From Acaryochloris thomasi RCC1774 (GTDB lineage: Bacteria; Cyanobacteriota; Cyanobacteriia; Thermosynechococcales; Thermosynechococcaceae): 32,000 bases of DNA. The position numbers and the translations under genes were made by a program. This document shows positions 1 through 15,936 of this stretch, in pieces. The notes below the pieces were generated by a model. It saw only the letters and a list, made by a program, of their open reading frames with translations, was not told the DNA's origin and searched no databases. The number at the start of each line of letters is the position of its first letter. Positions within the stretch are counted from its first letter, which is position 1. The stretch covers positions 60,001-92,000 of the forward strand of contig NZ_PQWO01000012.1 in the NCBI RefSeq assembly GCF_003231495.1, in the 5' to 3' direction.

Positions 1-375
1 CCAATGCTCCTGTCGCCAGGATTCTAGAGTCCGATCCTCTTCACCTTCGTCATAGGCAAACTGAGTATCCACTTCGCTGAAGGATCGAATATTGATCTCT
101 ACTGTTTCAATAATGCAGATAGGGGCACCTTCACCATTCAGAATGACCGTTTTTATCCCCATCATCTCATTGGGATCCGTTTGTTCCACCTCCCATTCCC
201 AAAGAGAGGAACAGGTGGCCGTTTTCACGCCATCTAGAACCAGTTGACCAAGGTCATTCGCGAGCTGGGCTGTATCGCCAAATTGATCAACGAGGTAGGC
301 TGCGTCCGGTTCGGTACCGGCTGGCAGGGCTTTGAGATAGCGATGCCAGCATTGTTCGATCTGTCTCTTGTTCAT
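1..375 (-). CDS. ASCH domain-containing protein (N-terminal 125 codons only; gene runs off the left window edge)
   Basis: Absent from the ORF track because it is truncated by the edge. A minus-strand ATG at 375 opens a frame that stays open to nt 1: MNKRQIEQCWHRYLKALPAGTEPDAAYLVDQFGDTAQLANDLGQLVLDGVKTATCSSLWEWE...FAYDEGEEDRTLESWRQEHW. This fits the ASCH/PUA-like pattern (FGD..la.el..LVl.G.KTAT ... fA.dEGE.DrsLe.Wr..H). Confidence 0.6.
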   Translation of the reverse strand, partial: MNKRQIEQCWHRYLKALPAGTEPDAAYLVDQFGDTAQLANDLGQLVLDGVKTATCSSLWEWEVEQTDPNEMMGIKTVILNGEGAPICIIETVEINIRSFSEVDTQFAYDEGEEDRTLESWRQEHW

Positions 376-1270
376 AGCGATTCTTCGGTGACCAATGATG
401 TTGGAGAAAGGCTCCTGCTTCTGAGATCGCAACTCTCCCCTCCTCCAACATGGGTGCAAACAACTGAAAGCAGTGAATCATGTCTTGCCAAACCTTGAGT
501 TCTACGGCAACGTTGGCCAATGCCGCCTGATGGGCAAGCCGCAGAGCGTCGCCGAGTAAAATCTCTGCTGCCCCGACGTGAATCAGAAGCGGCGGTAGGC
601 CAGATAGATCAGCATAGATCGGTGAGATCAGAGGGTCCTTCACGTTCTCATGGGGAGCATACCAAGCAGTAAGAGTATCCATCAGTGTCCGAGATACCAT
701 CAGATCGAGGTGGCCATGAGTATCAATGGTGGAGCTGGTTTGGGTCAGATCGCAGTAGGGCGAGATCAGTAGCCCTGAAGAAGGCAGTATCTCTTTGGTA
801 TCCCTTAAAGACAGCAGGGCTGCCAAAGCGAGATTGCCCCCAGCGGAGTCGCCTGCGATCGCAACTTGGCTGGGATGAAACCGACGTGTCTCAACAAGCC
901 AGCGATAAGCCGTCAGCGTATCTTCTAGCGCTGCTGGGTAAGGATGCTCCGGTGCAAGGCGATAGTCAATCACCAACACCCTTGCGGATGACGCCTCTGC
1001 TAGATCGCTAGCAATACGTCGATAGGTTTGGCGTGTTCCCATGACAAAACCGCCCCCATGAAGATACAGAATGACGCGATCTGGATCACTATTGGGAAGG
1101 GTAATCAGCTCGGCAGGAACACCATCAGCATCGAGGGTCTGAACCTGGGCTGTGGGATGGGACGGCAGAGAAAAGCAGCGGTTAAAGTTCGCTCTCATCT
1201 CGGCGAGTGTATCGCCCCAAGAAAAATCCTGCAGCATCGAAAGAATGTTGTTCAGTTCATTTTGACTCAT
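287..1270 (-). CDS. alpha/beta hydrolase, hormone-sensitive-lipase-type esterase/lipase
   Basis: 327-aa ORF with the oxyanion motif LHGGGF and the nucleophile elbow GDSAGG, both typical of the alpha/beta hydrolase fold-3 (HSL) family. The C-terminal ~35 aa overlap the next gene. Confidence 0.9.
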   Translation of the reverse strand: MSQNELNNILSMLQDFSWGDTLAEMRANFNRCFSLPSHPTAQVQTLDADGVPAELITLPNSDPDRVILYLHGGGFVMGTRQTYRRIASDLAEASSARVLVIDYRLAPEHPYPAALEDTLTAYRWLVETRRFHPSQVAIAGDSAGGNLALAALLSLRDTKEILPSSGLLISPYCDLTQTSSTIDTHGHLDLMVSRTLMDTLTAWYAPHENVKDPLISPIYADLSGLPPLLIHVGAAEILLGDALRLAHQAALANVAVELKVWQDMIHCFQLFAPMLEEGRVAISEAGAFLQHHWSPKNRYEQETDRTMLASLSQSPASRYRTGRSLPR

Positions 1271-1353
1271 GATTAAGAAGGCTCCATATGAAGAACTGAA
1301 GGAAACGCAAGTACGAGGCTGTCTCTACGCTCCACTTAGCTGTTTGGTTTGGA

Positions 1354-1923
1354 CTATGCTTCGATCTGAATCTGAGGCACGATACTTACAGGGTTGGCCA
1401 TATTCCATAGGTTGGGCGAAGCCATCAGGGTCATCTCATAGATCTCTTGGAACTGTTTAGCGGTTGCGTCTCCTTTGACGATCAGTGTCCAATACAGTGA
1501 CTGACAACCAGGGACAATACTGGGATCGAGTCCAAAGAATCCACGCAGGTCTAAATACCCGCTGCTTTTAATCTCTGCCTTCTCTAGGCGAATTCCGTAG
1601 GCGGTGCAAAGCTCAGTGAAGGTTGCCAGAATGCAGGAATTAATTGCCGATAGCAGCACCTCTTGGGGATTGGGGCCCAAGTTTGAGCCACCGATTTCTT
1701 TTGGCTCATCAATCACCAGGGTGAAATCGCGATCATAGGTTTCACTGCCCCAATCAAAGGACTTGACGTGAGAGATAGAACGGGGACCGTCGACCCAGGC
1801 GCTTGAGACCTGGAAGGTTAGCTTGGCCTGGAGGGGATTGGTTGCGATCGCACCCGATAACTCTTCGAGTTCATTGAGATCAAAACCATTGAGAGTCTGT
1901 GCTTGTTGAGTTTGCATCATCAT
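1354..1923 (-). CDS. OsmC/Ohr family protein (peroxiredoxin-like)
   Basis: 189-aa ORF with GPNPQEVLLSAINSCILATF (the OsmC signature G.NP.ElLl.Al..C) and a second Cys in VPGCQS. Confidence 0.75.
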   Translation of the reverse strand: MMMQTQQAQTLNGFDLNELEELSGAIATNPLQAKLTFQVSSAWVDGPRSISHVKSFDWGSETYDRDFTLVIDEPKEIGGSNLGPNPQEVLLSAINSCILATFTELCTAYGIRLEKAEIKSSGYLDLRGFFGLDPSIVPGCQSLYWTLIVKGDATAKQFQEIYEMTLMASPNLWNMANPVSIVPQIQIEA

Positions 1924-2000
1924 TTTCCTTATCTAGAAATATAGAGGTCATTGAATAGAGTGATAGGTGCCCCCATTCGTTGTCTTGCTGAAGCATTGCC

Positions 2001-2930
2001 TCAAGAGAAAGCCTGCGTTGTCTCAGCAATCAGGTCATACCCATCAGGCCCTAACGTGCGCACGCTCTCTACAAAGTTGGGGTGGGTCATCCCTGCAACA
2101 AGAAAGGTTTGCTGATAGGAAACCGTTTGTTGTTGCTGAATCGCTTCTCTGTCAGTGAGAGAAAGCGATCGCTCGGTCACTCGCTCCAGACTGTCAATAT
2201 CGAGCTGCACCTGGTTTATCAGTCCTGCATTGAGGTACTGAATAACAGCGATGTAATCATCAATGCCGGTGGCAATGGCTGCAGCATCTAAGTCTCGGGC
2301 CATTGACTGCACCATCAGCGTATCGAGTCGAGCGTGTTGGGCTTCTTCCTGCCAGTGATGCTTTAACAGACTGCAGAACTGCGGATCGAGGTTCTCTCGC
2401 TGATTTTCACGCACGCTTTCGAGAAAGTGACGTTGGGTCATCCATTCAATGTGTAGTGTCATCAGAGCGACACCGAGAGAACTGTGCTGGAGAATGAAAC
2501 GGGCGATCGCCGATGATGGACCAATACAGTCATAAGGACTGCCGAACCCAGCTTCAAAAGCTTCTGCAAACCGACGGAACAAATGGATATGCTTGCTTTC
2601 TTCGCTTGCAACGCCCAGGAAAGCTTGAGTTGCTTCAATCTCATCACTGCCAATCGCCTGAATATGATTAACCACTAAGGGCAAGATGGCTTCCTCTAAA
2701 ACGCTAAATAAATATAAGTAGCTGTTGCCGCGAATCTGGTTGAGCTTAAGTTGCTCTGCAGAACTCAGGCTGGCGATGGCCCCTGTGTGAGCGAGTCCCT
2801 CAGGGAGGAAGGGTTTGAAAAAATCAAGCGAGTTTTTATCGTTAATCAAATCCTGGACACGCCAGTTGATTTTGGTCGCGTCTTTCAAGATTGATGAATA
2901 GGTATTGTCATAAGTTATAAGAGCGGCCAT
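2001..2930 (-). CDS. ferritin-like diiron oxygenase (AurF / N-oxygenase-like family)
   Basis: 309-aa helical ORF with two ExxH diiron motifs (ASEESKHIHLF and WQEEAQHARLD) plus additional conserved Glu (VLEEAIL, HIEWMTQRH). The layout resembles AurF-type diiron oxygenases. Confidence 0.7.
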   Translation of the reverse strand: MAALITYDNTYSSILKDATKINWRVQDLINDKNSLDFFKPFLPEGLAHTGAIASLSSAEQLKLNQIRGNSYLYLFSVLEEAILPLVVNHIQAIGSDEIEATQAFLGVASEESKHIHLFRRFAEAFEAGFGSPYDCIGPSSAIARFILQHSSLGVALMTLHIEWMTQRHFLESVRENQRENLDPQFCSLLKHHWQEEAQHARLDTLMVQSMARDLDAAAIATGIDDYIAVIQYLNAGLINQVQLDIDSLERVTERSLSLTDREAIQQQQTVSYQQTFLVAGMTHPNFVESVRTLGPDGYDLIAETTQAFS

Positions 2931-2996
2931 GAAACCTCTTGTTTTTGAGTGAAAGTTGCTGAGTTGCCGAAAGCGTGTTGCCTCAACCTTGATTTC

Positions 2997-3050
2997 AGGC
3001 TAGAGAAGAGGGCGTTCCCGAAGCGTTCTTGAAACGTTCCTGAGACGTCT
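2997..3050 (-). promoter_or_regulatory. candidate promoter plus activator operator: four 11-bp-phased direct repeats abutting a -10 box (site A)
   Basis: On the plus strand CGTTC occurs at 3013, 3024 and 3035, and CGTCT at 3046, in exact 11-nt phase. In gene sense the array ends ...GGGAACGC, followed by 9 nt (CCTCTTCTC) and TAGCCT (TAnnnT, plus 2997-3002). The start codon of the diiron oxygenase is at 2930. The block is nearly identical to 15876-15907. Confidence 0.6.
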
Positions 3051-3338
3051 GGTCCTATTGGGAACAGGCACTGTTATGCCTTCAAACTGGGGTTCTCCAA
3101 AGGCGGTAAAGTCATTGAGATTAAGCGGGTCGGCATTGCCCTTCTGCAGCACAGCCAGCTGAGTACTGCCAAGGCGGAGGGTCGCCTTGTTCGCTTACTG
3201 AATAACGTCAAGATCTTCAAAGAGGAGTCCGTTCGACAGTCCGATCGGGTCTACAACTGTTGGAGAATTCCAGACACAAAAAAGCCGCCCTGGAGAACGG
3301 CCTTGGTAAATCCAATTGCTCTAAAAAACAGAGTCTGA
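3033..3338 (+). pseudogene. possible remnant of a LysR-type regulator (C-terminal substrate-binding part only)
   Basis: A stop-to-stop frame of 101 codons contains no ATG, GTG or TTG. It translates to ...KVIEIKRVGIALLQHSQLSTAKAEGRLVRLLNNVKIFKEESVRQSDRVYNCWRIPDTKKPPWRTALVNPI. This resembles the LysR C-terminal pattern (GlGIalLP......l..GrLV.ll........ly.vwr....sp..raf). The HTH and first ~200 aa are absent. Confidence 0.3.
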
Positions 3339-3348
3339 AATACTATGC

Positions 3349-4101
3349 TCACGTCAGGTTGAGTCCACCATCAGAGAGTAATATCTCGCCTGTAATGTAG
3401 TGGCTCACAATTAACATAGAAGCCACTTGTGCGATTTCTTCTGGCTGTGCGCCTCGACCCATAGGCGCCCGCATCTTCCAAAGCTCTCTTGCGGCAGTCC
3501 AATTCTGGCTCATAGGGGTGTTCACTAGGCCGGGTGCGATCGCATTCACCCGAATCGATGGTGCCAAACTCACCGCCAGCAATTTGGTCATATGGTTCAA
3601 AGCAGCTTTACTGACCGAATAGGGAACCGAAGCTCCCTTCGGTCGAATCCCGGCATGGGAACTGATATTTAGAATGCAGCTTGGGCATTCCTGACTTGAG
3701 GACTGGCGCAACGCGGCTTCAGCTTCGGTGATCAGTGTCCACGGCGCAATGACGTTGACTTCATACAGATCGCGCCAGATTTCCGGCGATGCTTCTTTTA
3801 ATGCCGTATGGGGGATTGCGGCGGTCACGCCAGCATTATTAACCAATGCATCTAGGCGACCGTAATGAGATAAAACCTCAGCGATTAACTGACGAGCTTG
3901 ATCTTGATCTGATAGATCAGCTTGGAAATAGGAGGCATCTGGGTATGCCGCAGCTAATTCTCGCCCTGCCGTCACGGAGGATTTGGAATGAAAGGCAACA
4001 GCGAAGTTGTCTCGAGCGAGCTGAGCTGCGATCGCTTTTCCAATGCCAGAAGTTGAGCCCGTCACCAGCGCAACTCTTTTGGGGTCCTTATCTCTGATCA
4101 C
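3349..4101 (-). CDS. SDR family oxidoreductase (short-chain dehydrogenase/reductase)
   Basis: 250 aa with the cofactor motif VTGSTSGIGKAIA, NNAG, and the catalytic S...YSVSKAA (YxxxK). Confidence 0.9.
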   Translation of the reverse strand: MIRDKDPKRVALVTGSTSGIGKAIAAQLARDNFAVAFHSKSSVTAGRELAAAYPDASYFQADLSDQDQARQLIAEVLSHYGRLDALVNNAGVTAAIPHTALKEASPEIWRDLYEVNVIAPWTLITEAEAALRQSSSQECPSCILNISSHAGIRPKGASVPYSVSKAALNHMTKLLAVSLAPSIRVNAIAPGLVNTPMSQNWTAARELWKMRAPMGRGAQPEEIAQVASMLIVSHYITGEILLSDGGLNLT

Positions 4102-4285
4102 AACTTGGCGCTTCTCATTTTGCTAAACTCAACCGACCGAGCCGTCCCCTAGAACTGATTTCAAACTATTCAGACCGGCACTCTCAAAGTGTTCTCTGGA
4201 CTTTGCAGCAATTCTTACACCTGGAGGAAGATGCCAATACCACTTCGAGAATGGCTAATCAGAAGCTCTCTACTGATGCGATGAT

Positions 4286-4678
4286 CTAAGAATGAACCTC
4301 ACTGACAATCATTGCATCGATCTCCACGAGTTGATGCTCATAGGCCAGTCGCGCTACGCCCAGTAATGTAGCTGGGGGGACATCATTGTTGAACCACTCC
4401 GTAACCGCCTGCCATGCAGCCATGAGAGTTGGATGATCTCCAACGACGTAGATTTTTAGCTGGCGAATATCACGTTTATCAAAACCATGCAGCGTGATTA
4501 GCGTTCGCAAATTACCAAGGCACTGATTCACCTGAACATGGGGCTTGCCGATGCCAACCAGATTTGCCTCAGAATCGTGCGGCACCTGACCGGAAATGAA
4601 CAGTTGTGGACCAATGCGCTGAGCATATTGGTAGTTAGGAGTCTGGGCTAGCCCTGCTGCTATTTCATGCTCGTTCAC
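4286..4678 (-). CDS. RidA/YjgF/endoribonuclease L-PSP family protein
   Basis: 130 aa with LFISGQVP..., IKIYVVG and a C-terminal LVEIDAMI, typical of the RidA fold. Confidence 0.8.
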   Translation of the reverse strand: MNEHEIAAGLAQTPNYQYAQRIGPQLFISGQVPHDSEANLVGIGKPHVQVNQCLGNLRTLITLHGFDKRDIRQLKIYVVGDHPTLMAAWQAVTEWFNNDVPPATLLGVARLAYEHQLVEIDAMIVSEVHS

Positions 4679-4827: not shown

Positions 4828-5100
4828 TCAATGAGAGGCGGCGGCCACTGCAGGCGTAATCAGATCGACGGTCCAAATGCGGACAAAAGGTAGCCCAGCT
4901 TTACGAAAGGACCGCTGGACGGTCTCAGCATCAGGAGCCTCAAATTCACAGATGACCTGGGTGCGATCGCAACCCATCATCGACCTCACCCAGTGAACGT
5001 TGTGGGCTGTATGGCAAGGAATGCCAATGGCAACATCTCGGTCCCATTTTTCTGGTGTAATCGGTGGATCAAAATGCTTTTCAACAAGGACGCGGACCAT
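4828..5100 (-). CDS. DUF4242 domain protein (SCO4226-like small alpha/beta protein)
   Basis: 90 aa. The pattern ...HWVRSMMGCDRTQVICEFEAPDAETVQRSFRKAGLPFVRIWTV matches the DUF4242 consensus as I recall it (W..s..s.D......C.yeApd.e.vre...raglp.d.i.ev). Confidence 0.55.
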   Translation of the reverse strand: MVRVLVEKHFDPPITPEKWDRDVAIGIPCHTAHNVHWVRSMMGCDRTQVICEFEAPDAETVQRSFRKAGLPFVRIWTVDLITPAVAAASH

Positions 5101-5244: not shown

Positions 5245-8200
5245 CTAAGCTGTGTGGATAGGAGCGTCTAGCTGGGTCGATATATTTGCGATCGCAACTC
5301 TAGCCCGAGCAGCCAGACCCAGCGGATTTATTTTCTGCAGGTCTCGAAAATGCGTCTCAGCAAGCTCAAGCTCGCCAATTGCTAGATAACCCTGAATCAA
5401 CGTTGCCAACACCAGGGCAACATCACTAGGATGATCAACAACTCGGGCTGCCTCCAGCGCCATTTGGCATCGGGAGATAGCGCGTTGGGGTTCGCCTCGC
5501 TCCAAGTCTTTCTCCGCAGCGGACGTCAGCGTATAGGCCAGACTTCGCTGAGCATCGACGCATTTCAGCCTGTCTAACGTCTGTTCTAACTCCGTTTCAG
5601 CTTCTGAAGGCTGCAGCCAGTATTGCGATAAAGCCACCAGCGCCGCTGCAACAGCCCCTTCATTGCCACCGCCAAGCTGAGCGGCAACAGTCGTGAGTTG
5701 CCGACAATAATCTAATGCCGCAATCGCATTTCCGCTTTCAAGTTCTAGCATCGCTAAATATGAAACACAGGTGAATTCTCGCCAGTGATCCTGCATATAT
5801 TGGGCAATCTGCCGCGCCTGCGTCAGCAACAGACGCGCCTGCTCATCGTCACCGTGATACCGGCGAACACAGCCTAGCCCACAGGGAATATCGAAGGGTT
5901 CTAGCCCGACTCGACTAGCCAGAGATTGAGCCTCTAACAGCAGAGCCTCAGCCCGCTCCATCTCGCGGCCAATATCCGATAGACACCAGCCTGTATAGGC
6001 CAGCATTTGAGCCATCACGGTAGGACTTGCGCTGCGACCTTGTTCTACGGCCTTCAGACACTGTTGATGGACATCTGCGAGATTGTCTTGCTCATAGTGC
6101 AGCGCAATCAGAACTTCTAGCCCTAGAGCCTCTTCATCTGGCAGGCTGAGTCTTCGGGCCTCTAGCAGTAGCTGGTTCAAGCTGACTTCGACCTGCTGGG
6201 CCTGCACTTTATCCATCCCAGCCAGCACACAAACCTTGAGCAGACGCAAATGCAGACTGATTCGGACTTCAGGTGGTAAAGATTGGCACTGTTCAATCCC
6301 CCACCGCGCCAGTGCTGCGGCATCAGTATAGGCAAACAGGCGCAGGCCGCGTTCGGCTGCTGCCAGTAGAGATGTCGCGGCAAGTTCAGGATCCTGCCCT
6401 ATGGCTGCGTGACGGGCAATATCACTGGCTAAAGCGTCATCAGAACTCGTCAGTTTCTGTAGCTGGTGAGCGATATGTCGATGCATCAGCCGTCGACGAG
6501 GCTCAGAGGGTTGGCCATAGGCAACCTGTCGGACAACATCATGGGTAAAGAGATAGACCGCTTCACCGTCATCCCTAATGTCTGGACTGAGAATACCCTG
6601 CTGTTCTAGCTCTTCTATCGCGGTCAAGAAGGTTGTCAGCGGACAGTCCGCGATCTGAGCGACCTGCATTGGATCAAAGCTGCGCCCCATTGCTGCAGCC
6701 CAGGTCAAAAGATCCTGTGTAGAAGTGTCGAGCTGCTGCAGCCGCTCCTGAACTAGCGCCTCTAAGTTGTCAGCATCCGCTGAGTAGCCAGATGCGATCG
6801 TACGCGCAATTTCCAGGGCAAACAGGGGATTGCCACCGCTGTCGGTATAGATGCGATCGCTATCCAAATCCGCGTCAATGGTCTGGGTCAGCTCCGTCGT
6901 GGCCTGACGATCCAATGGCTCTAGGGGGATGACTTGGAGTTTGCGATCGCGTCTGAGCGTTTTCACGAGCTGACAAGCTGCGGCGTTGGCTTCCAGATCT
7001 CGGTGACGGGCTGCACAGGCAAACTGAATCGACGAGTGTCCCAACAGGCAAACAACATAGTTCAGCAGGGCCGTCGAAATTTCATCAAGCCATTGAATGT
7101 CGTCAAAAATGATCACCAGCGGGACTGACTGCTTCGCCAGCCCAGTCAGGTATTCAGCCACTGCATCGAAGAGGCGACTACGATCGATCTGAAGTTCCGG
7201 GTCACCCGGCTCAGGGAAGAGTGTTCCCAGTTCAGCAGGGAGCTGGCTAGGCAGCGCATCCAGCCAAATGCTGAAGGGCCTGACTTTTTCAGCTTCAAAC
7301 CCACGTCCCCAAAGCACCTGTCCCCCCATATCCTGGACCGCTGAACGCAGCGTTTCCAGAACTCGGGTTTTGCCAATGCCTGATTCTCCTAGCAACAGCA
7401 GAGATAAGTGAGAGCCGAGCCACCCTTGAATCATTTCCCATTCTTGCCGACGTCCGATGAGAGATGACGTTGAGGGTAGAGTCGCGAGTGGCTTCCCCTG
7501 AGAAGCGGCTATAGGAACGTTAGATATCTCAGCATTCGTCGCTGCAGCGGTCTTAATTTGCTCAACAGCACCCAACTGCTTGAGCGACATTCTCTGAGCT
7601 TCGGTTAGCCCCCTTGCATGGAGGATATTGGTTCTGTCATAGGGGCGCGCACCGCGCAGGACCGCCACACATTCGCCCGTTTCTCGGTCCCAGAGGTGAA
7701 CCGTTTCATCCTGGCTGCCGCTAGCCAGCAGGTGACCCTCAGGGCTAAAGGTTACGGCCCAAGCCAGATTGGTGTGTCCCTCCAAGGTCTGGAGACAGCC
7801 TCCTGTTCGTACATCCCAGAGCTTGACTGTTTTATCGCTGCTGGCGCTGGCGAGACATTGACCATCAGGACTAAAGGCCACGGACCACACCCGACTGCTG
7901 TGACCTTCGAGTGTTTTCAAGCACTGGCCCGTTTTCAGATTCCAGAGCTTGATGGAATGGTCTCCGCTACCGCTGGCGAGGTGTTGCCCATCGGGACTCA
8001 AGGCAATGGACCAGACCCAGTTGCTGTGCCCCTCAAGGGTCTGACAGCAGGCTCCCGTAAAAGGATCCCAAATTTTAATGGTTTGGTCATAGCCACCACT
8101 GACCAACCTGAGGGATTCGGCTGGGCAAAAAGCCACTGAACAGACCCAGTTTGTGTGCCCCTTCAACGTGCGTAAGCATTGGCCCGTATGGACATCCCAA

Positions 8201-11200
8201 AGTTTAATCGTTTGATCTTCACTGCCGCTGGCTAAGAGGCCCCCCTCTGGACTGAAGGCAACTGACCAAATCCTGCTGGTGTGTCCTTTCAAAGTCCGTA
8301 AACACTGGCCGGTCTCAAGATCCCAGAGCTTGATGGTTTGGTCTTCGCTGCCGCTGGCGATCAGATGATCTTGGGGACTGAATCTAACGGCACAGACGGC
8401 ATCGGTATGTCCTGACAGCGTTTGCCGATAGGTCGGTCCTTCTACATTCCACAGCTTGATCTGGTGGTCGTCATTGGCGCTTGCCAAAATGCCGCCGTAG
8501 GGATGTTGCGCAGAACCGGGACTGAAGGCAACGGACCAGACGCGATCAATATAGCCCTGGAGTGTTCTCTGGCACTGACCGTTGGTCCCCCATAGCTTGA
8601 CGGTGTTGTCACCACTGCCGCTAGCGAGGGTTTTTCCATCGGGGCTGAAGGCGACAGAGCGAATCCAGTTACCATGTCCTCGAAGGGTTTGACGACAGTT
8701 CCCTGAAGCGATTTGCCAGAGCCTGATGGTCCTATCTTCGCTGCCGCTGGCGAGGGTTTCTCCGTCAGGGCTGAAGGCAATGGAGCGCACCCAGTTGGTG
8801 TGTCCAGACAAGGTTTGAATACAGTGGCCGGTCTGAGTGTCCCAAAACTTGATCGTGCAGTCGCTGCTGCTGCTGGCTAGTCTGTTGCCTGAGGCATAGG
8901 CTAAGGACCACACCCGTTTTGAGTGCCCCTCTAGCGTCTGTTCACACCGTCCCGTTTCCGTCGCCCAGAACTTAATAGTTTGATCATCACTGCCGCTGGC
9001 GATTGTTTTCCCGTTGGGGCTGAAGGTGACGGAGCGCACCCAGTCGGTATGGCCGGTTAGGGTCTGGTGACAGGCTCCTGTTTCTAAGTCCCAGAGCTTG
9101 ACGGTGTGATCTTCGCTGGCGCTGGCGAGGAGGGGTGTTGTGGGGTGGAAGGCCACTGACCAGACTTGAGCTTTGTGATCAAACGTTTGCCGACATTGAC
9201 CTGTTTCTAGATCCCAGAGTTTGATGGTGCGATCGCTACTCCCGCTCGCCACAGTACCGCCATCGGGACTAAAGGCCACGGACCAGATCCAGTCTGTATG
9301 TCCCGAACAAATAAGCAGATTTCGGCCATCCTCAACGCTCCAGATGCGAATCTCACCTTTCGCATCTCCAGTGGCTAGACGTGTTCCATCAGGGCTGAAC
9401 GCTAGTGCTAGCGGCAAGCTCAGCGTTTCTATAAAGGCAGCCTGAGACAGATCAGCCTCCTGTAGGTTGCAGTCGGATAAATGAACCCGACGTAAATCGG
9501 CCTGCCGCAGCGCTAGTCCTGAGAAGTCATAGTGCTCCAAGACCGGGCTGGACTGGCTCAGCAGATTGAGAATGTTGCCCGCCGCGTAGCTCGACTGTAA
9601 GGTGGGATCGCTGTGCAGCCCCGCCAGAGCCTGACGCAAGCAGGGTTCACTGTTCGCCTCGCTGCCGCACTGACCGGACAAACCGTTGAGGACCGGCTGC
9701 AGAATCTCTCGAATTTGAATTTCGCGAATGTAGTCGCTACTCTGAGCCTTGAGCAAAGTATGGGTGCAGAAAAGGGCGGTGGCAGATAGATTCTCCTGCT
9801 CTGCTTCCGTCTCTGAAACTTGACCAAGAGTCAAAATCTCATGGCAAACCTGGTCTACAAGCTGTGCAGTAACGTACTCCATAACCACTGGCTGTTGGGC
9901 ATAGCGGCCTGCTTGTTTTTCAAGTAGCGATCGCCACATCAGCGACTCCAGGGCTTCTAGGAGTGCCGACCGCGAGGTTTGAGGCACAAGATCTTCGGCG
10001 AGTTCAGCAATCGCAGTCCACTCCCGGTTGATGGCTAACCAATACATGACCGATTGCTCTAGGGGCGTGCAGCGCTGGAACTGCTGTTCTAATAGTTGAT
10101 GAATACCGCTGAAGATGCCTGCGCCGGGTCGATGGAAGGCGGCAATGTCACCATCAAACAAGTCTTGAATGGAGGTGGCGACAATTTTTAGGGCCAAGGG
10201 ATTGTGGCCGTAGAACTGGCACAGGTCCTGCTGCTGTTGTTCTGTTCCGATCAGACCCTTGGTCTGGACCAGGGTCATCGCGGCTTCTGGCGAACCATTC
10301 AATAGGAGCGATCGCACCGGCAGATCCATGCCCTCTAATGCAGAAAATTCTCGCGGCTTCTCGCGGCTGGTGAGGATCAAGCAGCTTTGATGGTGGGTCT
10401 CTCCCATCAACCGCAGGAGTTCTCCGTAGTTTTCGTAGCCGGGGTGATACTGTCCAGAGCGCTGGTCTCCTTTTAAAAGCGTTTCAACGTTGTCTAGAAT
10501 CAGCAGGCATCGGGTCTGACGCAGGCCATCCATCAAACGAGCTAAGGTTGGCTCTGTTTCCTGCTGGTCAGAGATAATGGGGACGATCTCACCCATTAGG
10601 GTTTCTAGGCTAGGGGCATTCCGCAGAGATCGCCAAACAATGCAGTCAAATTTATCGTCAGCATCAGACCCTAATTGAGAATGCTCAACGAGGACCTGTG
10701 CTAGCTTCACCGATAGGGACGTCTTGCCAATACCGCCCATGCCTAGCAAGACAATGACGCGACAGCGATCCGCCAGGGTCCACTGCTCCAGCATTTCTAG
10801 TTCATCGGCACGTCCATAGAAGAGGCTGACATCCGGAGCGTTTCCCCAGTCGCAGCGTAGAGAGGAAGCTCCTGTTGATGTCTCGGAGGCTGATCGGTGG
10901 ACCTCTACGTATCTATCTTGCTGGGCATTTTGGTGATTTGTTAATAACGCTGGTTCGTCGAGGAGATGTTGATAGAAGGCTTGAATTGATTGACTGGGGT
11001 CGATTCCTAGCTCTTCTTGTAGGGTCGTCATGCAGCGATGATAGACCTGCAGGGCTTGGGTGCGGTCGCCGTTGGCGAGATGCGATCGCATCAAGTATTC
11101 ATAAGCAGTTTCACTCAGCGGATCCATCTGCAGAAGCTGCTGGGCATAGCGAATCACCTGGCTATGGTCTCGCTGTATCTGCAAAAGCTGCAGCAGCCCT

Positions 11201-11772
11201 GCATAAGCTTGAATGCAGGATTGATGGAGTCGCTCGCGCTCAGCTTCAATCCACTCGTCATAGCAGCTCGGCAGTAATTTCCCTTCATAGAGCTTGACTG
11301 CCTGCTGCAGAGCTGAGCCAATTGTTTTCAACTGCTCGGGCTGACGGGTTACAAGCTCATCTGACTGATCGACGAACAAAGAGACAGCTCGCTCAAACTC
11401 ATTGACATCAAGGGTATAGGGAGACTCTAAACGCCACTGGATGGACTGTGTGTCAACCGCAATGAACTGCTCTGAATCTGGAAAAACCTGGCGCAGAGAA
11501 TGGAGATTTCGTCGCAGGTTCGTTCGCGCCTGCGAGTCACTGGAGTCTGGCCAGAGGCGAAATGCAATCTGCTGTCGAGATTGAGGCGTATGTCGATGCA
11601 GCAGCAAGTAGGCCAGCAGGGACTGCAGCCGCTTCGGTATCTTCCCACCGATGGACTTTTGTTTGTAGATCAGGTCAAAGCCACCTAAGAATCTTATTCG
11701 TAAGATTTTTGGCACACTCACATACCTTCTTGAAACGGTGGAAGCTTCAAGTGGATAGCCCCACGATCTCAT
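5245..11772 (-). CDS. giant STAND regulator: SARP (OmpR-type wHTH + BTAD), NB-ARC, pentapeptide, 14 WD40 repeats, fused to a second AAA_16 P-loop and TPR-like module
   Basis: Single 2175-codon ORF.
- wHTH+BTAD, about 10945-11715: ILRIRFLGGFDL...LLAYLLLHRHTPQSRQQIAFRLWPD...LRRNLHSLRQ, then LYEGKLLP..YDEWIEAERERL...ALQVYHRCMTTLQEELGIDPS.
- NB-ARC: Walker A GMGGIGKT at 10720-10743 and Walker B CLLILDNVE.
- Pentapeptide-like tract at 9435-9531.
- WD40 array at 7650-9411.
- Second P-loop LLLLGESGIGKT at 7366-7389 and Walker B LVIIFDDIQWLDE at about 7085-7122.
- Helical/TPR-like tail from about 6500 down to 5245.
The true start may be the GTG at 11715 (AGAAGG lies 9 nt upstream), which would give (M)PKILRIRFLGG. 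Confidence 0.9.
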   Translation of the reverse strand: MRSWGYPLEASTVSRRYVSVPKILRIRFLGGFDLIYKQKSIGGKIPKRLQSLLAYLLLHRHTPQSRQQIAFRLWPDSSDSQARTNLRRNLHSLRQVFPDSEQFIAVDTQSIQWRLESPYTLDVNEFERAVSLFVDQSDELVTRQPEQLKTIGSALQQAVKLYEGKLLPSCYDEWIEAERERLHQSCIQAYAGLLQLLQIQRDHSQVIRYAQQLLQMDPLSETAYEYLMRSHLANGDRTQALQVYHRCMTTLQEELGIDPSQSIQAFYQHLLDEPALLTNHQNAQQDRYVEVHRSASETSTGASSLRCDWGNAPDVSLFYGRADELEMLEQWTLADRCRVIVLLGMGGIGKTSLSVKLAQVLVEHSQLGSDADDKFDCIVWRSLRNAPSLETLMGEIVPIISDQQETEPTLARLMDGLRQTRCLLILDNVETLLKGDQRSGQYHPGYENYGELLRLMGETHHQSCLILTSREKPREFSALEGMDLPVRSLLLNGSPEAAMTLVQTKGLIGTEQQQQDLCQFYGHNPLALKIVATSIQDLFDGDIAAFHRPGAGIFSGIHQLLEQQFQRCTPLEQSVMYWLAINREWTAIAELAEDLVPQTSRSALLEALESLMWRSLLEKQAGRYAQQPVVMEYVTAQLVDQVCHEILTLGQVSETEAEQENLSATALFCTHTLLKAQSSDYIREIQIREILQPVLNGLSGQCGSEANSEPCLRQALAGLHSDPTLQSSYAAGNILNLLSQSSPVLEHYDFSGLALRQADLRRVHLSDCNLQEADLSQAAFIETLSLPLALAFSPDGTRLATGDAKGEIRIWSVEDGRNLLICSGHTDWIWSVAFSPDGGTVASGSSDRTIKLWDLETGQCRQTFDHKAQVWSVAFHPTTPLLASASEDHTVKLWDLETGACHQTLTGHTDWVRSVTFSPNGKTIASGSDDQTIKFWATETGRCEQTLEGHSKRVWSLAYASGNRLASSSSDCTIKFWDTQTGHCIQTLSGHTNWVRSIAFSPDGETLASGSEDRTIRLWQIASGNCRQTLRGHGNWIRSVAFSPDGKTLASGSGDNTVKLWGTNGQCQRTLQGYIDRVWSVAFSPGSAQHPYGGILASANDDHQIKLWNVEGPTYRQTLSGHTDAVCAVRFSPQDHLIASGSEDQTIKLWDLETGQCLRTLKGHTSRIWSVAFSPEGGLLASGSEDQTIKLWDVHTGQCLRTLKGHTNWVCSVAFCPAESLRLVSGGYDQTIKIWDPFTGACCQTLEGHSNWVWSIALSPDGQHLASGSGDHSIKLWNLKTGQCLKTLEGHSSRVWSVAFSPDGQCLASASSDKTVKLWDVRTGGCLQTLEGHTNLAWAVTFSPEGHLLASGSQDETVHLWDRETGECVAVLRGARPYDRTNILHARGLTEAQRMSLKQLGAVEQIKTAAATNAEISNVPIAASQGKPLATLPSTSSLIGRRQEWEMIQGWLGSHLSLLLLGESGIGKTRVLETLRSAVQDMGGQVLWGRGFEAEKVRPFSIWLDALPSQLPAELGTLFPEPGDPELQIDRSRLFDAVAEYLTGLAKQSVPLVIIFDDIQWLDEISTALLNYVVCLLGHSSIQFACAARHRDLEANAAACQLVKTLRRDRKLQVIPLEPLDRQATTELTQTIDADLDSDRIYTDSGGNPLFALEIARTIASGYSADADNLEALVQERLQQLDTSTQDLLTWAAAMGRSFDPMQVAQIADCPLTTFLTAIEELEQQGILSPDIRDDGEAVYLFTHDVVRQVAYGQPSEPRRRLMHRHIAHQLQKLTSSDDALASDIARHAAIGQDPELAATSLLAAAERGLRLFAYTDAAALARWGIEQCQSLPPEVRISLHLRLLKVCVLAGMDKVQAQQVEVSLNQLLLEARRLSLPDEEALGLEVLIALHYEQDNLADVHQQCLKAVEQGRSASPTVMAQMLAYTGWCLSDIGREMERAEALLLEAQSLASRVGLEPFDIPCGLGCVRRYHGDDEQARLLLTQARQIAQYMQDHWREFTCVSYLAMLELESGNAIAALDYCRQLTTVAAQLGGGNEGAVAAALVALSQYWLQPSEAETELEQTLDRLKCVDAQRSLAYTLTSAAEKDLERGEPQRAISRCQMALEAARVVDHPSDVALVLATLIQGYLAIGELELAETHFRDLQKINPLGLAARARVAIANISTQLDAPIHTA
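7650..9411 (-). repeat. intragenic array of 14 WD40 repeat units (~126 nt each, two predicted 7-bladed propellers)
   Basis: Fourteen units fit GH(T/S)xW(V/I)xSVAFSPDGxxLASGSxDxTIKLWDxxTGQCxxTL. Each ends in (I/V)(K/R/H)(L/F/I)W: IRIW, IKLW, VKLW, IKFW, IKFW, IRLW, VKLW, IKLW, IKLW, IKLW, IKIW, IKLW, VKLW, VHLW. Neighbouring units look only about two-thirds identical at nucleotide level by eye. Confidence 0.9.
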
Positions 11773-12087: not shown

Positions 12088-12648
12088 TTATTTGGATACG
12101 GGGAGTGTCGTTGACTCTCCAGTTGACGCGTCTAGACCGACAGGCTGGTTGAAAGTCAGGCTTATCGTTGCTCTCTTCTCAACATCAAGTGACCCTTCTT
12201 GAATGAATTGGCTCTCGCGAACTGTTCCTTTGCGTGCCCGTTGATCATTGTGATAAATGTCTCCTGTCTCTAGGTCGTACTCTAGCTCTAGCGCGACACC
12301 GTCAAAAAAGCTGATGTCAACAGGCTCATCATTTTGAGGTCCGTCGTTGTCATATAGCTCAACCCGAATCGGCACCCTAGCTTTTGAAGTCTGTTTTGTC
12401 TGAGTGAGGTCGAATCCGGCTGAATTAAAATTATTACGGCCTTGATCGGAACCTATTTCCTGATCGTCGACAAAGAGCACGGCTTTCAACTCAGATCGTC
12501 GCTCAGTTTTATTATCAACTTCATCGAAAATTATCCTGGGGTCAGTATCGGTACGAACAACGCTGAACGTTCTGGTTGATCGAGATTGTGCTCGTGCGCC
12601 TCCTTTAGCGAGAGTTGGTGTAGAGCTAACTAACGCAGGAAGAGCCAT
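12088..12648 (-). CDS. hypothetical secreted protein (no family recognised)
   Basis: 186-aa ORF from the first canonical start. The in-frame upstream codons (to 12687/12696) encode a textbook Sec signal peptide, so the real start is probably non-canonical (see findings). The mature part is acidic and beta-rich (VELYDNDGPQNDEPVDISFFDGVALELEYDLETGDIY). The gene is lower in GC than its neighbours by eye. Confidence 0.6.
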   Translation of the reverse strand: MALPALVSSTPTLAKGGARAQSRSTRTFSVVRTDTDPRIIFDEVDNKTERRSELKAVLFVDDQEIGSDQGRNNFNSAGFDLTQTKQTSKARVPIRVELYDNDGPQNDEPVDISFFDGVALELEYDLETGDIYHNDQRARKGTVRESQFIQEGSLDVEKRATISLTFNQPVGLDASTGESTTLPVSK

Positions 12649-12744
12649 TGCTGCCAGTAAACCGAACGCAATAAGTTGGCGTTTTATAGCTTGAATATCC
12701 TTGGATTGAATTAAGTGGGCTTGCTAAGTGTTTTGAACAATTCA

Positions 12745-12792
12745 AAGGTATTTAGCTAGGCGTTATAAAAGAATTTTAGAAGCGTCCAGTAA
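12745..12792 (-). promoter_or_regulatory. possible weaker third copy of the 11-bp-repeat promoter (site C)
   Basis: On the plus strand GCGTTATAAAA lies at 12760-12770 (8/11 to GCGTTCCCAAA) and GCGTCCAGTAA at 12782-12792, 22 nt later, resembling the distal aCGTCCTGAG unit of site B. The middle unit is not conserved. In gene sense, 9 nt after the proximal repeat lies TACCTT (TAnnnT, plus 12745-12750), the same geometry as sites A and B. Confidence 0.3.
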
Positions 12793-12916
12793 ATGTTTTA
12801 TGATGTCTTTTGTTCGCAAAATATAATTAATTTAGAGGTGAAGCTTGCCCCAAATCTTGCTAAAGAATACAGATAGAAACGAAATAAATTTTATTAGAAA
12901 AAGTATATTCTTCTCC

Positions 12917-13016: not shown

Positions 13017-13847
13017 TTAAATTCTCCCAGACATTATATTGGTCACCTGCTCTGCAGCTTGCTCAAGCAGATCGGTCTTAACATTGGTGTAGTAATCAGG
13101 ATGCTTTGCGATCGCATCTAAAATTCCTCCTAAATCTGCATTCCCCTTCCTCACCCCTAGACCCTTGATCGAACACCCAACTTGTCGAGCACCGGCCTGA
13201 ATCGCCGCCAGCGAATTCTCAACCGCCAGCCCGCGATCGTCACGGCAGTGAACAGAAAGCGTCACCTGATCAATATTGGGCACCTGCCTTTTGAGTAAAG
13301 CAATGAGGCCTGCGAATGATTCCGGTTCAGCCACACCCGCCGTATCAGGAATATTGATTGTCGTTGCCCCACCCTCAATCGCCGTTTCCACCGCACAGCA
13401 GAGAAATTCTGGTTCACTCTTGAGGGCATTGAAAGCTGACCACTCTATGTCAAAAGAATAGTTGCGGGCGAGGACAAGGGTCTGACGGATCAGTTCTAGA
13501 AGTGCTGATCGGTTGAAAATGGCCTTCTGCTGCACTGGCGTGTAGACATGAATCCGCCCTCGTGCAGCAGACCGTAGGGCAAGGGCGACATCAATGACTT
13601 CATCAGGCTTGGAGCCTGCCAAACCACAAATGGCGGTCTGCTTGATCCGTTTTGAAACCATCAGCAGCTCATCAAAGTCTTTGCGGAAGGCACCGGGATA
13701 GCCGGCCTCAATCACATCAATCTGCATTTTTTCAAGTAATTCGGCAATTTGAACCTTTTGATAGAGCGTCATTCTCACCCCCGGCATCCGTTCACCGTCC
13801 CGGAGGGTGGTGTCAAAAATTGTAATTTTCGATGGAGAAGCCGTCAT
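13017..13847 (-). CDS. HMGL-like / 2-isopropylmalate-synthase-like TIM-barrel protein, truncated and with degenerate catalytic motifs
   Basis: MTASPSKITIFDTTLRDGERMPG...IDVIEAGYPGA...INIPDTAGVAEP...SVHCRDDRGLAVENSLAAIQAGA...GLGVRKGNA matches the LeuA/HMGL family backbone. I place the start at the ATG at 13847. The track ORF begins at a TTG at 13946, adding a Cys/Arg-rich 33-aa extension that is unlikely to be real. Confidence 0.75.
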   Translation of the reverse strand: MTASPSKITIFDTTLRDGERMPGVRMTLYQKVQIAELLEKMQIDVIEAGYPGAFRKDFDELLMVSKRIKQTAICGLAGSKPDEVIDVALALRSAARGRIHVYTPVQQKAIFNRSALLELIRQTLVLARNYSFDIEWSAFNALKSEPEFLCCAVETAIEGGATTINIPDTAGVAEPESFAGLIALLKRQVPNIDQVTLSVHCRDDRGLAVENSLAAIQAGARQVGCSIKGLGVRKGNADLGGILDAIAKHPDYYTNVKTDLLEQAAEQVTNIMSGRI

Positions 13848-13942
13848 AACAATGGGGAACACAGTATGGGGGAAAGGCGTTGAGCAACCACCGCGCTCAT
13901 GGATCCTTGATCGACGGGCCAGTCGACCGCACAGGCAGTCAC

Positions 13943-14533
13943 TCAACTCTGGAGCGCTGGGGGGTAGCGCACCATTGGGAAAATAGGAGGAGAATCGTTC
14001 ACCTGGATAGTGGTCAGCACCTCAAATCCGTGGCGTTCGTAGAAGGGAATGTTGTCGGGATTGGATGATTCAAGATAGGCCAGTTGGGCGTTGCGATCGC
14101 ACTCCCTCAGCACAGGCTCCATCAGGGCAGATCCGTGTCCTCTACGCTGCTGTTCTGGTTCAACGCCCAGCAATGCCAAATACCAGTGGGGCGCTTCAGG
14201 ATGACAGTTGCTCATCGCTTCGAATAGAGCAAACACGGTGTCTAGATCGGGGGAAACAGTTCGCTGAAGCAGAGTATTGAGAGCCTGATTTTCGGGATAG
14301 CTCCCCGGTGCCTGCCACAGCGCAGTTCCAGCGTTATTCTCAGCGGCATATGCCGTATCGGCATCAAAGGCAGTTCCACCTAACAACTGCACAAAATCAG
14401 GGAAGTACGTAAGGTACTGATGGGAGTTGGGATAAAGCCAACGCACTGCCGGATCGGTGCGAAAAGCAAGTACTAAAGCATCGATCATCGCATCCACTTT
14501 AGTGCTTGGTTCTCTGAGGGAGAGGGCTGTCAT
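13943..14533 (-). CDS. GNAT family N-acetyltransferase
   Basis: 196 aa with the acetyl-CoA binding core LLGVEPEQQRRGHGSALMEPVL...AYLESSNPDNIPFYERHGFEV. Confidence 0.85.
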   Translation of the reverse strand: MTALSLREPSTKVDAMIDALVLAFRTDPAVRWLYPNSHQYLTYFPDFVQLLGGTAFDADTAYAAENNAGTALWQAPGSYPENQALNTLLQRTVSPDLDTVFALFEAMSNCHPEAPHWYLALLGVEPEQQRRGHGSALMEPVLRECDRNAQLAYLESSNPDNIPFYERHGFEVLTTIQVNDSPPIFPMVRYPPALQS

Positions 14534-14699
14534 GATCTTGATCTCCTAAAGATTGGTCGTGGGTAGCAGGGCCTGACTTCAAACCTTGGCGATGATCTGT
14601 TACTACTAAGGTTGAGAACTGGCTCGTGTCCAGCAGTGACGCCGAAGAAAGCAGAGCGTTGGAGTAACGCTGTCCGATGCGGCAAATTTGGCACATGCT

Positions 14700-15776
14700 T
14701 TAGCTCTTTTTGACGATGTAGAAATTATTCTGAAAGTCGTGGTCGAGCTGCTTGATTTCCACTTGCTTGAATCCGGCCTCTTCTAGCATCTCTAGCGCTT
14801 TTTCTTCTCCCCACATGGCTCCAAGCCCCAAGCCCCCAGCGGCGAGAGAAACGGTCATGCAGTGCAGACAAGAGATGGTGTAAAGCAATGGCCCAACTGG
14901 ATGCTCTAGGTTCCCGCTCACGTCACTAGCGGCGCGAATATCCTGCATGAAGTAGGTACCGTTGGGTCGTAAGGCCCGGTAGATGTTATTGAGGACCACA
15001 TCAGGTTTGGCCTGATCGTGGATTGCATCAAAGGTGGTGATCAAGTCGTACTGCTCGACAGCATCCAGGGTCGCGGCATCCTTGATCTGGAACCGGACGT
15101 TGGTCAACCCTTGGGACTGCGCTTCAATGTTGGCAGTTGCGATCGCTTCTTCCGAAAAATCATACCCAGTAAAGCGACTGTGAGGGAACAGCATCGCCAT
15201 CTGATTGAGAGCACGACCGCTACCGCAGCCAACATCCATAACCTCAATGCCGCGCTCTAAAGCATCAACCAAACCGGGCATGAGGGGCAAAACATGCTCC
15301 ATTAATGCTGCAACGACCGTTTGGCCACTATCTTCGGCCATCACTTGGTGAAAGCGCTTATATTCTGAATAGGGAACGCCACCGCCGCTGTAGAAGCAGT
15401 CGATTACTTGGTCTTCAACGCTGCCCAGTAGTGGAATGTACTGACTAAATGCTGCCAAATTATTGGGGGAGGCAGTGCGGGTCAAGAAGGCCGCATGTTC
15501 TGACGGCAGATGATAGGTTTGCTCGATGGCGTTATAGTCCACAAATCTTGCGGTTACCATTGCCCCCAGCCACTCGCGGACGTAACGTTCTTGCAGTCCA
15601 GCAGCATCAGCAACGGCCTGACTTGTCGCAGGAGGGAGCTGAGCTAGGGTATCAAATAGACCGGTACGGTGACCGATGGAGGTCATAAGTGCGACTGCAC
15701 CACCGTTGAGCGTATCTAGAAGCCGATCGGCAAAAGCTTCGGCTTTCATCTCCTTGAACACTTGTGCTGTCATCAT
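14700..15776 (-). CDS. class I SAM-dependent methyltransferase with N-terminal winged-helix-like domain (Rv2258c-like)
   Basis: 358 aa with motif I VMDVGCGSGRAL, an acidic loop YDFSEEA, and post-I/II motifs DLITTFDAIHD and LRPNGTYFM. The N-terminal ~150 aa form a helical dimerisation/wHTH-like region. Confidence 0.85.
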   Translation of the reverse strand: MMTAQVFKEMKAEAFADRLLDTLNGGAVALMTSIGHRTGLFDTLAQLPPATSQAVADAAGLQERYVREWLGAMVTARFVDYNAIEQTYHLPSEHAAFLTRTASPNNLAAFSQYIPLLGSVEDQVIDCFYSGGGVPYSEYKRFHQVMAEDSGQTVVAALMEHVLPLMPGLVDALERGIEVMDVGCGSGRALNQMAMLFPHSRFTGYDFSEEAIATANIEAQSQGLTNVRFQIKDAATLDAVEQYDLITTFDAIHDQAKPDVVLNNIYRALRPNGTYFMQDIRAASDVSGNLEHPVGPLLYTISCLHCMTVSLAAGGLGLGAMWGEEKALEMLEEAGFKQVEIKQLDHDFQNNFYIVKKS

Positions 15777-15860
15777 CGGTTTCTCCTAGTAGCGAAAAAG
15801 CCGGAGGCTCAAATGGGCCTGCCGAGAGGAAACTTAGGTTTTATGTAACTCGATGATTGA

Positions 15861-15903
15861 AATTTAGCGGGGCAAGCGTTCCCAAAGCGTTCCCAAAACG
15901 TCC
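15861..15903 (-). promoter_or_regulatory. candidate promoter plus activator operator: three 11-bp-phased direct repeats abutting a -10 box (site B)
   Basis: On the plus strand CGTTC occurs at 15877 and 15888, and CGTCC at 15899, in exact 11-nt phase (GCGTTCCCAAA GCGTTCCCAAA aCGTCCTGAG). In gene sense the array ends ...GGGAACGC, followed by 9 nt (TTGCCCCGC) and TAAATT (plus 15861-15866). The methyltransferase start codon is at 15776. Confidence 0.6.
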
Positions 15904-15936
15904 TGAGTTTTTATGACTCTTCTTTCCATAGAACAA

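Follow-up and report, generated by a model that had tools for sequence, protein, structure and literature searches.

Which signal directs transcription of an operon that begins with the gene for an AurF-like diiron protein and has no recognizable -35 box? This question is raised by a 32,000-nt stretch of DNA from the cyanobacterium Acaryochloris thomasi RCC1774 (contig NZ_PQWO01000012.1, positions 60,001 to 92,000), here called the window. Upstream of the AurF-like gene, at site A, direct reading of the plus strand places CGTTC at 3013, 3024, and 3035 and CGTCT at 3046. In gene sense, i.e., on the minus strand, these are the cores of four head-to-tail units of 11 bp which are followed by 9 nt and the hexamer TAGCCT (Table 1). 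A preliminary description of this DNA had claimed four phased direct repeats, a distance of 9 nt from the proximal unit to the hexamer, and repeats in place of a -35 box. The coordinates of the repeats are correct, positions 3003-3011 lie between the heptamer GGAACGC and the hexamer, and a promoter search finds no sigma-70 -35/-10 pair on the gene strand, neither at site A nor at the similar site B, which precedes a methyltransferase gene. We propose that sites A and B are activator-dependent promoters with phased binding sites, to which we assign a probability of about 0.9 on the basis of sequence, and that the activator is probably the neighboring protein with SARP and STAND modules.

Site B (15854-15908) has the same organization, with CGTTC starting at 15877 and 15888 and CGTCC at 15899 of the plus strand; in gene sense, three units are followed by 9 nt and TAAATT. 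The preliminary description considered it an almost verbatim copy of the block of site A, 12.9 kb away. This is true for the repeats, which align at about 85%, the distal unit of site B requiring a gap of 1 nt, but not for the spacers and the -10 hexamers, which differ. Within the window, the pair pattern CGTTC-N6-CGTTC is matched 6 times with at most one mismatch, whereas 1.34 matches are expected and none of 100 shuffles reaches this count. The triple pattern, with at most two mismatches, is matched 3 times versus 0.05 expected, and all three matches fall within sites A and B. Period-11 arrays detected by Tandem Repeats Finder are limited to two places of the window, 3013-3048 and 15874-15901. 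Chance cannot account for the phased repeats at sites A and B. When a 57-nt position weight matrix (PWM) comprising three units, spacer, hexamer, and 7 nt is built without the window's own sites, site A scores 37.4 bits and site B 29.6 bits; besides these and two weak sites treated below, the remaining DNA of the window scores at most 1.2 bits everywhere.

The layout is not confined to this window: orthologous and paralogous promoters of about 30 independent cyanobacterial loci share it. Our comparison set consists of 79 loci encoding AurF-like relatives, taken from a collection with one genome per species in which the best match to the window's AurF-like protein reaches 67%, and of a few more loci obtained by exact protein look-up. 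For the scan, 47 non-redundant cyanobacterial loci were used, with 32 non-cyanobacterial AurF-like loci as contrast. Three GGAACG-like cores at a spacing of 11 occur 10 times in 1.37 Mb (both strands) versus 0-1 times at each other spacing from 6 to 16, and detection of triple arrays with a PWM yields 14 at spacing 11 but not a single one at 8-10 or 12-14. The set of unit cores was then broadened, including the GCGACG type of Nodosilinea and Phormidium that had been spotted by eye, and with this set the 47 loci contain 34 arrays at lag 11 and 0-4 at other lags. TAnnnT follows the last heptamer after exactly 9 nt in 29 of the 34 arrays, versus 3 cases at the remaining offsets between 3 and 17 combined. 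The same scan finds no such arrays in the 32 non-cyanobacterial loci. The gene-sense consensus of the unit is (T)TTnGGAWCGs. GGAACG/GGATCG units are present in the window, Leptolyngbya (JSC-1 and IPPAS B-1204), Tumidithrix, and Aphanothece, GGACG/GGATG units in Nostoc and many Leptolyngbyaceae, and GCGACG/GGGACG units in Nodosilinea and Phormidium tenue. Across lineages, the letters of the unit vary, whereas phasing, orientation, and distance to the hexamer are constant, and arrays are conserved between genera at 45-69% protein identity. They are located 8-327 nt 5' of an AurF-like, OsmC, GNAT, S-methyltransferase, or methyltransferase gene, on the same strand. Aphanothece (L014) has one array before its AurF-like gene and a second one, on the other strand, before a homolog of the window's methyltransferase gene, which mirrors the two-target layout of the window.

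Short tandem and dispersed repeats abound in the genomes of cyanobacteria, and the arrays might be taken for such an element, or for a tandem repeat arisen by chance, without any regulatory role. This explanation is hardly credible, as the window contains only two strong copies, both in promoter position, unit sequences vary across genera at invariant phasing and -10 distance, and control DNA is devoid of arrays. The preliminary description had named scattering without promoter association as an objection to its proposal; in the 2.09 Mb of DNA that were fetched, the motif is present only 5' of genes and on the strand of the gene. A dispersed repeat of the STRR or MITE-like kind is effectively refuted by the period of 11 and the exclusive gene-upstream position. 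The period of STRR sequences is a 7-mer.

When 31 distinct promoters are aligned on the hexamer, the unit cores are rich in information, and so is a CA dinucleotide 6-7 nt past the hexamer (1.5 and 1.7 bits), which in the window forms part of GAAATCA at site A (2990..2996) and TCAATCA at site B (15854..15860). CA at that distance is the usual -1/+1 context, and the conserved CA is predicted to mark the start of transcription. Conservation extends past the -10 box, many loci reading TGAA-TAACCT-GATAACAGAAC, and the remaining conservation after the hexamer could reflect a preference in the initial transcribed region or a second protein contact. With the A as +1 (2990 and 15854), the hexamer occupies -12 to -7, the proximal GGGAACGC -29 to -22, and the two proximal 11-bp units -40 to -19, and 5' leaders of 60 nt (site A) and 78 nt (site B) are predicted. 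The structure of these leaders is not unusual (fold z-scores of -0.01 and -0.17), and Rfam gives no match in the window at the gathering threshold, only a sub-threshold match on the terminator hairpin. A leader RNA or riboswitch was rejected, as there is neither an Rfam match at threshold nor a stable leader fold. The afs box bound by AfsR spans -40 to -19 with its center at -29.5, each protomer contacting the first 8 bp of an 11-bp repeat, and SARPs generally have sites made of direct repeats at intervals of 11 or 22 bp, the 3' repeat being 8 bp from the -10 element (PMC10936776; PMC11301090). The geometry in the window matches this rule within 1 bp, since the distance from the heptamer GGAACGC to TAnnnT is 9 nt, or 8 nt with a unit length of 8 bp.

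A protein bound across the spacer between -35 and -10 could also occlude RNA polymerase. The arrays might then serve as a repression operator or roadblock for a SARP-type protein or some other factor, with transcription coming from another promoter. Such a role seems very improbable. Neither a -35 hexamer nor another sigma-70 promoter is detected, a terminator is located just upstream of site A, and a fixed distance of 9 nt to TAnnnT together with CA at the expected start is what co-assembly with RNA polymerase predicts, not occlusion. Besides, characterized SARPs are activators (PMC10936776).

The candidate for the activator is a protein of 2175 aa, whose N-terminal part the preliminary description had taken for a winged helix-turn-helix with a BTAD (about aa 20-290). 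The protein consists, in this order, of a SARP domain (aa 21-276, nt 10945..11712), NB-ARC, WD40, a second P-loop NOD (AAA_16), and TPR. Pfam's BTAD matches aa 122-271 (E 2.4e-25), sequence searches with aa 21-276 match AfsR (E 1e-9) and EmbR (E 1.5e-7), and the top NCBIfam match is the AfsR model. An AlphaFold2 model of the SARP domain, built with 40 homologs, has a pLDDT of 91.5, and its best match in the PDB is AfsR within the afsS transcription initiation complex (8hvr_I, E 3.5e-11, TM 0.77, 261 columns), followed by 8k60 and EmbR. BTAD, sequence matches to AfsR and EmbR, and the AfsR fold all agree with the original assignment, and judged by sequence and model the protein holds a genuine SARP domain. 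Two segments, aa 24-360 and 1420-2170, share 39-49% identity with SARP-NOD-TPR proteins of about 1030 aa from other cyanobacteria, and an inserted module of about 1060 aa (aa ~300-1405), composed of NB-ARC plus WD40 repeats, separates the SARP domain from the NOD. The order of SARP, P-loop NOD, and TPR that is typical of large, AfsR-type SARPs is kept with this insertion as the one departure, and by its sequence the regulator looks like a chimera. The regulator of the closest relative (L001) has the same architecture with 2179 aa, while P0121 is a partial SARP plus NB-ARC protein.

Clustering of the open reading frames (ORFs) from the cyanobacterial loci reveals the AfsR-like family as the only regulator family that recurs beside the AurF-like gene, with a complete SARP-NOD-TPR protein of about 1030 aa in 16 loci and one cut by the edge of the locus in 2 more. 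Linkage of this gene to the promoter was scored with the 57-nt PWM, leaving out one locus at a time, at a threshold of 7.2 bits, i.e., 2 bits above the control maximum of 5.2 bits in 538 kb of non-cyanobacterial AurF loci; the control maximum among other metagenome loci is 6.3 bits. All loci with an AfsR-like gene (18/18) score at least 18 bits, whereas none of the seven loci whose only STAND neighbor is an HTH-NB-ARC-WD40 protein reaches 7.2 bits (Fisher p = 2e-6; 2.4e-5 against all other cyanobacterial loci). Arrays are also present in four loci that were retrieved through the SARP domain alone (L118, L140, L159, and L164), and in L140 three GGGAACG units, 9 nt, and TATACT directly follow the regulator gene. 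The recognition-helix region AKANLRRRLHEL goes with GGACG units, AKTSLRRELYRL with GCGACG units, and ARTNLRRNLHSL and ARANLRKELSRL with GGAACG/GGATCG units, a pairing that fits co-evolution of protein and site, although it is confounded by phylogeny.

Phased direct repeats of 11 bp that replace a -35 box are also bound by regulators of the OmpR/PhoB family, a resemblance pointed out before (PMC11301090), and a response regulator of this family, encoded elsewhere, might bind the arrays in the manner of a pho box without participation of the neighboring SARP-STAND protein. The promoter, however, tracks the AfsR-like gene (18/18 versus 0/7), and no response-regulator family is enriched near AurF-like operons. 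We consider this possibility improbable in view of the lack of linkage between a regulator of this kind and the operons. A pho box was rejected, since a regulator with receiver and Trans_reg_C domains is neither encoded in the window, where the only receiver protein is a REC-GGDEF protein (29476..30483), nor enriched in the loci. To our knowledge, the unit resembles neither the pho box nor the known cyanobacterial boxes, i.e., PyTTAAPyPy of SphR, HLR1 of RpaB (GTTACA), and the G-box of CcaR.

Several observations weigh against the neighboring SARP-STAND protein acting at SARP boxes in sites A and B. The geometry of PhoB/OmpR promoters is nearly the same as the one described here, and the gap of 9 nt departs from the canonical 8. 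In the protein, Trans_reg_C (aa 48-102) attains 21.3 bits, which is under the cut-off of 26.2, and the DNA-binding sub-domain alone has no PDB match by sequence. Where AfsR contacts bases through T88 and R92, the aligned residues are R88 and S92, and recognition is therefore not transferable from AfsR. Twelve further loci (12 of 23 array-bearing or array-capable ones) possess the promoter but no AfsR-like gene in the fetched flanks, a point that also favors an OmpR/PhoB regulator. Action in trans must be assumed there, which is plausible for Leptolyngbya JSC-1 because its regulator is encoded at a second AurF-like locus (array in L013, regulator in L023). Finally, about 76 of 80 SARP homologs from metagenomes, obtained by one scan with a SARP-domain alignment and mostly of higher G+C, lack arrays and, with one exception, AurF-like neighbors; these loci are probably non-cyanobacterial. 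SARP-domain identities of 43-51% are found in many soil-metagenome proteins without arrays and AurF-like neighbors as well. This identity is therefore no marker of orthology, and the case rests on synteny and on the correlation of DNA-binding domain and operator, not on sequence identity. Distant SARP-like proteins (E 1e-5 to 6e-9) are also encoded near AurF-like genes in four metagenome-assembled genomes of Proteobacteria (L063, L072, L073, and L082), and in these loci the cyanobacterial promoter model finds no arrays. On balance, the reading as SARP boxes is supported in every element that sequence analysis can address, i.e., phasing, the distance of 9 nt, the SARP fold, and co-occurrence. 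The start site, binding of the protein to the repeats, and its role as an activator and not a repressor are inferred, as is the kind of signal.

According to the mechanism that we propose, sites A and B would each form the upstream half of an activator-dependent promoter without a -35 box. Three to four units of 11 bp, arranged head to tail on one face of the helix and ending 9 nt before TAnnnT, would be bound by the SARP domain (OmpR-type winged helix plus BTA, aa 21-276), one protomer per unit. The two proximal units (-40 to -19) would take the position of the afs box. By analogy to AfsR, the bound protomers might offer region 4 of sigma and the core of RNA polymerase a docking surface that replaces the -35 box ('sigma adaptation') and recruits the polymerase. 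The C-terminal NB-ARC-WD40 and NOD-TPR modules presumably hold the SARP domain inactive until a signal arrives.

Among known systems, AfsR at the afs box of the afsS promoter of Streptomyces coelicolor (PDB 8hvr and 8k60) is similar in its 11-bp head-to-tail direct repeats, in a poor or absent -35 box, in proximal units at -40 to -19, and in a protein with an N-terminal SARP domain followed by P-loop NOD and TPR. It differs in that the afs box has 2 units whereas 3-5 are found here with the unit (T)TTnGGAWCGs, in the base-contact residues, in the absence of the NB-ARC-WD40 module of about 1060 aa, and in its target, afsS in Streptomyces versus an AurF-like/OsmC operon in the cyanobacterium. 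The small pathway-specific SARPs ActII-ORF4, DnrI, and RedD and the SARP-LAL PimR are, like the candidate here, situated in a cluster in which several promoters have the same phased repeats. In pathway-specific SARPs, the proximal repeat is about 8 bp from the -10 box (PMC10936776), compared to 9 nt after the heptamer here. The Streptomyces heptamer TCGAGXX, which is typical of the family though not strictly defining, is absent, and the window's cluster contains no recognizable core natural-product biosynthetic enzymes such as a polyketide synthase or nonribosomal peptide synthetase. Class II promoters of PhoB/OmpR regulators (pho box and the boxes of SphR, CcaR, and RpaB) share 11-bp phased repeats that are bound by a winged helix and replace the -35 box, but have another consensus, and the linked protein here has a BTA domain and STAND modules, no receiver-domain regulator being linked. 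EmbR of Mycobacterium tuberculosis (PDB 2fez and 2ff4) has the same SARP fold (TM 0.67-0.69, normalized to the query), together with a C-terminal FHA domain and control by a Ser/Thr kinase, and we know of no promoter array comparable to that of the window for EmbR. The sequence attributes of a SARP box, i.e., 11-bp direct repeats, about 8 bp to the putative -10 box, a weak or absent -35 box, and a SARP gene nearby, are found together at this locus.

Two weaker sites in the window are included in Table 1. One of them lies 5' of the gene for an unannotated 186-aa protein, which itself precedes the regulator gene. The other, 5' of the SDR gene, has degenerate repeats but the core TGAA-TAGTTT-GAAATCA that is typical of the family. 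Both are intergenic, are on the same strand as the gene downstream, and score above every control. The cluster of 15.5 kb may therefore represent a single regulon as a whole, perhaps with autoregulation.

Table 1. Promoter elements, candidate sites, and genes in the window, and repeats of the second type in other loci
Feature	Position	Strand	Remarks
Site A repeat array, four 11-bp units	3012..3055	-	predicted about -62 to -22
Site A distal unit GGACCAGACGT	3055..3045	-	degenerate, AGACG core
Site A unit CTCAGGAACGT	3044..3034	-	
Site A unit TTCAAGAACGC	3033..3023	-	
Site A proximal unit TTCGGGAACGC	3022..3012	-	holds heptamer GGAACGC (3018..3012)
Site A spacer CCTCTTCTC, 9 nt	3011..3003	-	
Site A putative -10 hexamer TAGCCT	3002..2997	-	AGGCTA on plus strand
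Predicted transcription start, AurF-like operon	2990	-	A of conserved CA, 7 nt past hexamer, from 31-promoter alignment
Site B repeat array, three 11-bp units	15876..15908	-	
Site B unit ACTCAGGACGT	15908..15898	-	
Site B units TTTGGGAACGC, twice	15897..15887 and 15886..15876	-	
Site B spacer TTGCCCCGC, 9 nt	15875..15867	-	
Site B putative -10 hexamer TAAATT	15866..15861	-	
Predicted start, methyltransferase/GNAT/HMGL operon	15854	-	A of CA, 7 nt past hexamer
Candidate weak third site	12738..12794	-	TACTGGACGC / TTCTAAAATTC / TTTTATAACGC, 9 nt, TACCTT; 11.3 bits
Candidate weak fourth site	4156..4212	-	10.5 bits; 5' of SDR gene
Operon 3' of site A	287..2930	-	AurF-like diiron, OsmC-like, alpha/beta hydrolase
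AurF-like diiron protein gene	2001..2930	-	
OsmC-like protein gene	1354..1923	-	
Alpha/beta hydrolase gene	287..1270	-	
Terminator-like hairpin and T-run 3' of SDR gene	3281..3304	-	separates SDR gene from site A promoter
SDR gene	3349..4101	-	
SCO4226-like gene (90 aa)	4828..5100	-	directly 3' of regulator gene
Regulator gene (2175 aa)	5245..11772	-	
Gene of unannotated 186-aa protein	12088..12648	-	5' of regulator gene
Operon 3' of site B	13017..15776	-	methyltransferase, GNAT, HMGL-like
HMGL-like/isopropylmalate-synthase-like protein gene	13017..13946	-	
GNAT gene	13943..14533	-	
Winged helix-turn-helix (HTH_65)-SAM methyltransferase gene	14700..15776	-	
CCATACT(T) repeats in other loci	L069 233/254; L079 9849/9871; L065 20257/20277/20311; L016		

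The window is cyanobacterial, its closest protein match (95% identical) coming from 'Cyanobacteria bacterium P01_A01_bin.17', and every gene between 287 and 15776 is encoded by the minus strand. In the order of transcription, the genes for methyltransferase, GNAT, HMGL, the 186-aa protein, the regulator, the SCO4226-like protein, RidA, and SDR are followed by the hairpin, site A, and the genes for the AurF-like protein, the OsmC-like protein, and the hydrolase. The SCO4226-like protein ('nickel responsive', PF14026, E 2e-14) had been missed by an ORF list starting at 100 aa; its homologs, often duplicated in tandem, follow the AfsR-like gene in 17 cyanobacterial loci. The OsmC-like and methyltransferase products of the window match NCBIfam models of an OsmC-related (seleno)protein and of an arsenite-methyltransferase-like protein, all below cut-off, and in other array loci (L004/L159) a homocysteine S-methyltransferase gene is the first of the operon. 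The genes presumably controlled by the arrays have a thiol, selenium, or metalloid flavor. Upstream of site B, the ORF for IF3 (infC, 16013..16453, minus strand) is listed with a TTG start and begins at position 12 of the IF3_N profile, and the true start is probably an unusual codon farther upstream. An unusual start codon is typical of infC. A terminator-like hairpin (16029..16015) overlaps the end of this ORF.

The closest relative, L001, is 95% identical to the window at the DNA level. From the array to the ATG, 3 changes are counted in 135 nt, compared to about 10% changes in the upstream intergenic DNA; L001 is too close for footprinting, apart from showing that the promoter has changed less than the spacer upstream of it. 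Where the window has 3349..4678, L001 (7600..7870) has lost RidA, and of the SDR gene it retains only a C-terminal remnant; the regulator, the SCO4226-like gene, the terminator, site A, and the operon are all still present. The spacer between terminator and site A (3051..3348) gives a blastx match to an ORF of L026 (43% over 49 aa, E 2e-7) and, by this similarity, may be a gene remnant.

Seven loci (L008, L010, L016, L026, L065, L069, and L079) encode NB-ARC-WD40 proteins whose best-matching segments are 39-56% identical to the module inserted into the window's regulator. Their N-terminal domain is different, HTH-like, about 90 aa long, and without a Pfam match, and the full-length HTH-NB-ARC-WD40 proteins (L026, L069, and L079) comprise about 1140-1200 aa. 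The genes adjoin paralogous AurF-like genes in loci without GGAWCG arrays, and in at least four of the seven loci CCATACT(T) direct repeats, about 20-35 bp apart, are present 5' of the AurF-like gene. The type of operator seems to follow the type of DNA-binding domain. Taken together, one might propose a phylum-wide regulon of AfsR-type 'sigma adaptation', two STAND sensors with two operators, and their fusion in this organism, a joint claim that we put forward as tentative and rather doubtful as a whole. The regulon would have as its core target the uncharacterized operon of AurF-like di-metal oxygenase and OsmC, joined by partners of the SCO4226-like, GNAT, and methyltransferase kinds. Paralogous copies of the operon seem to be under the control of two STAND sensors that use different operators, SARP-NOD-TPR appearing to pair with 11-bp GGAWCG arrays and HTH-NB-ARC-WD40 with CCATACTTT pairs, and both sensors would be fused here in the 2175-aa protein, which keeps the DNA-binding domain of the SARP. 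If the fusion is true, a single promoter type would integrate two signals.

SARP/AfsR activators are known almost entirely from antibiotic clusters of actinomycetes, and our full-text literature searches yield no paper on a cyanobacterial SARP, its binding site, or its regulon, and nothing on the motif strings. The comparison of sequences supports a SARP-type activator-dependent promoter outside the actinobacteria, with a new consensus and a conserved regulon. It provides a conserved promoter model at base resolution, consisting of units, 9-nt spacer, -10 box, and predicted start, and names a candidate for the regulator as well as a target operon whose conservation extends over Leptolyngbya, Nodosilinea, Nostoc, Tumidithrix, Aphanothece, and others. 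It also suggests that the docking geometry of AfsR on RNA polymerase (-40 to -19) has been retained between phyla that differ strongly in their sigma factors and in the composition of their promoters. With such a model at hand, the function of a large and unstudied class of cyanobacterial BTAD/STAND proteins becomes directly testable.

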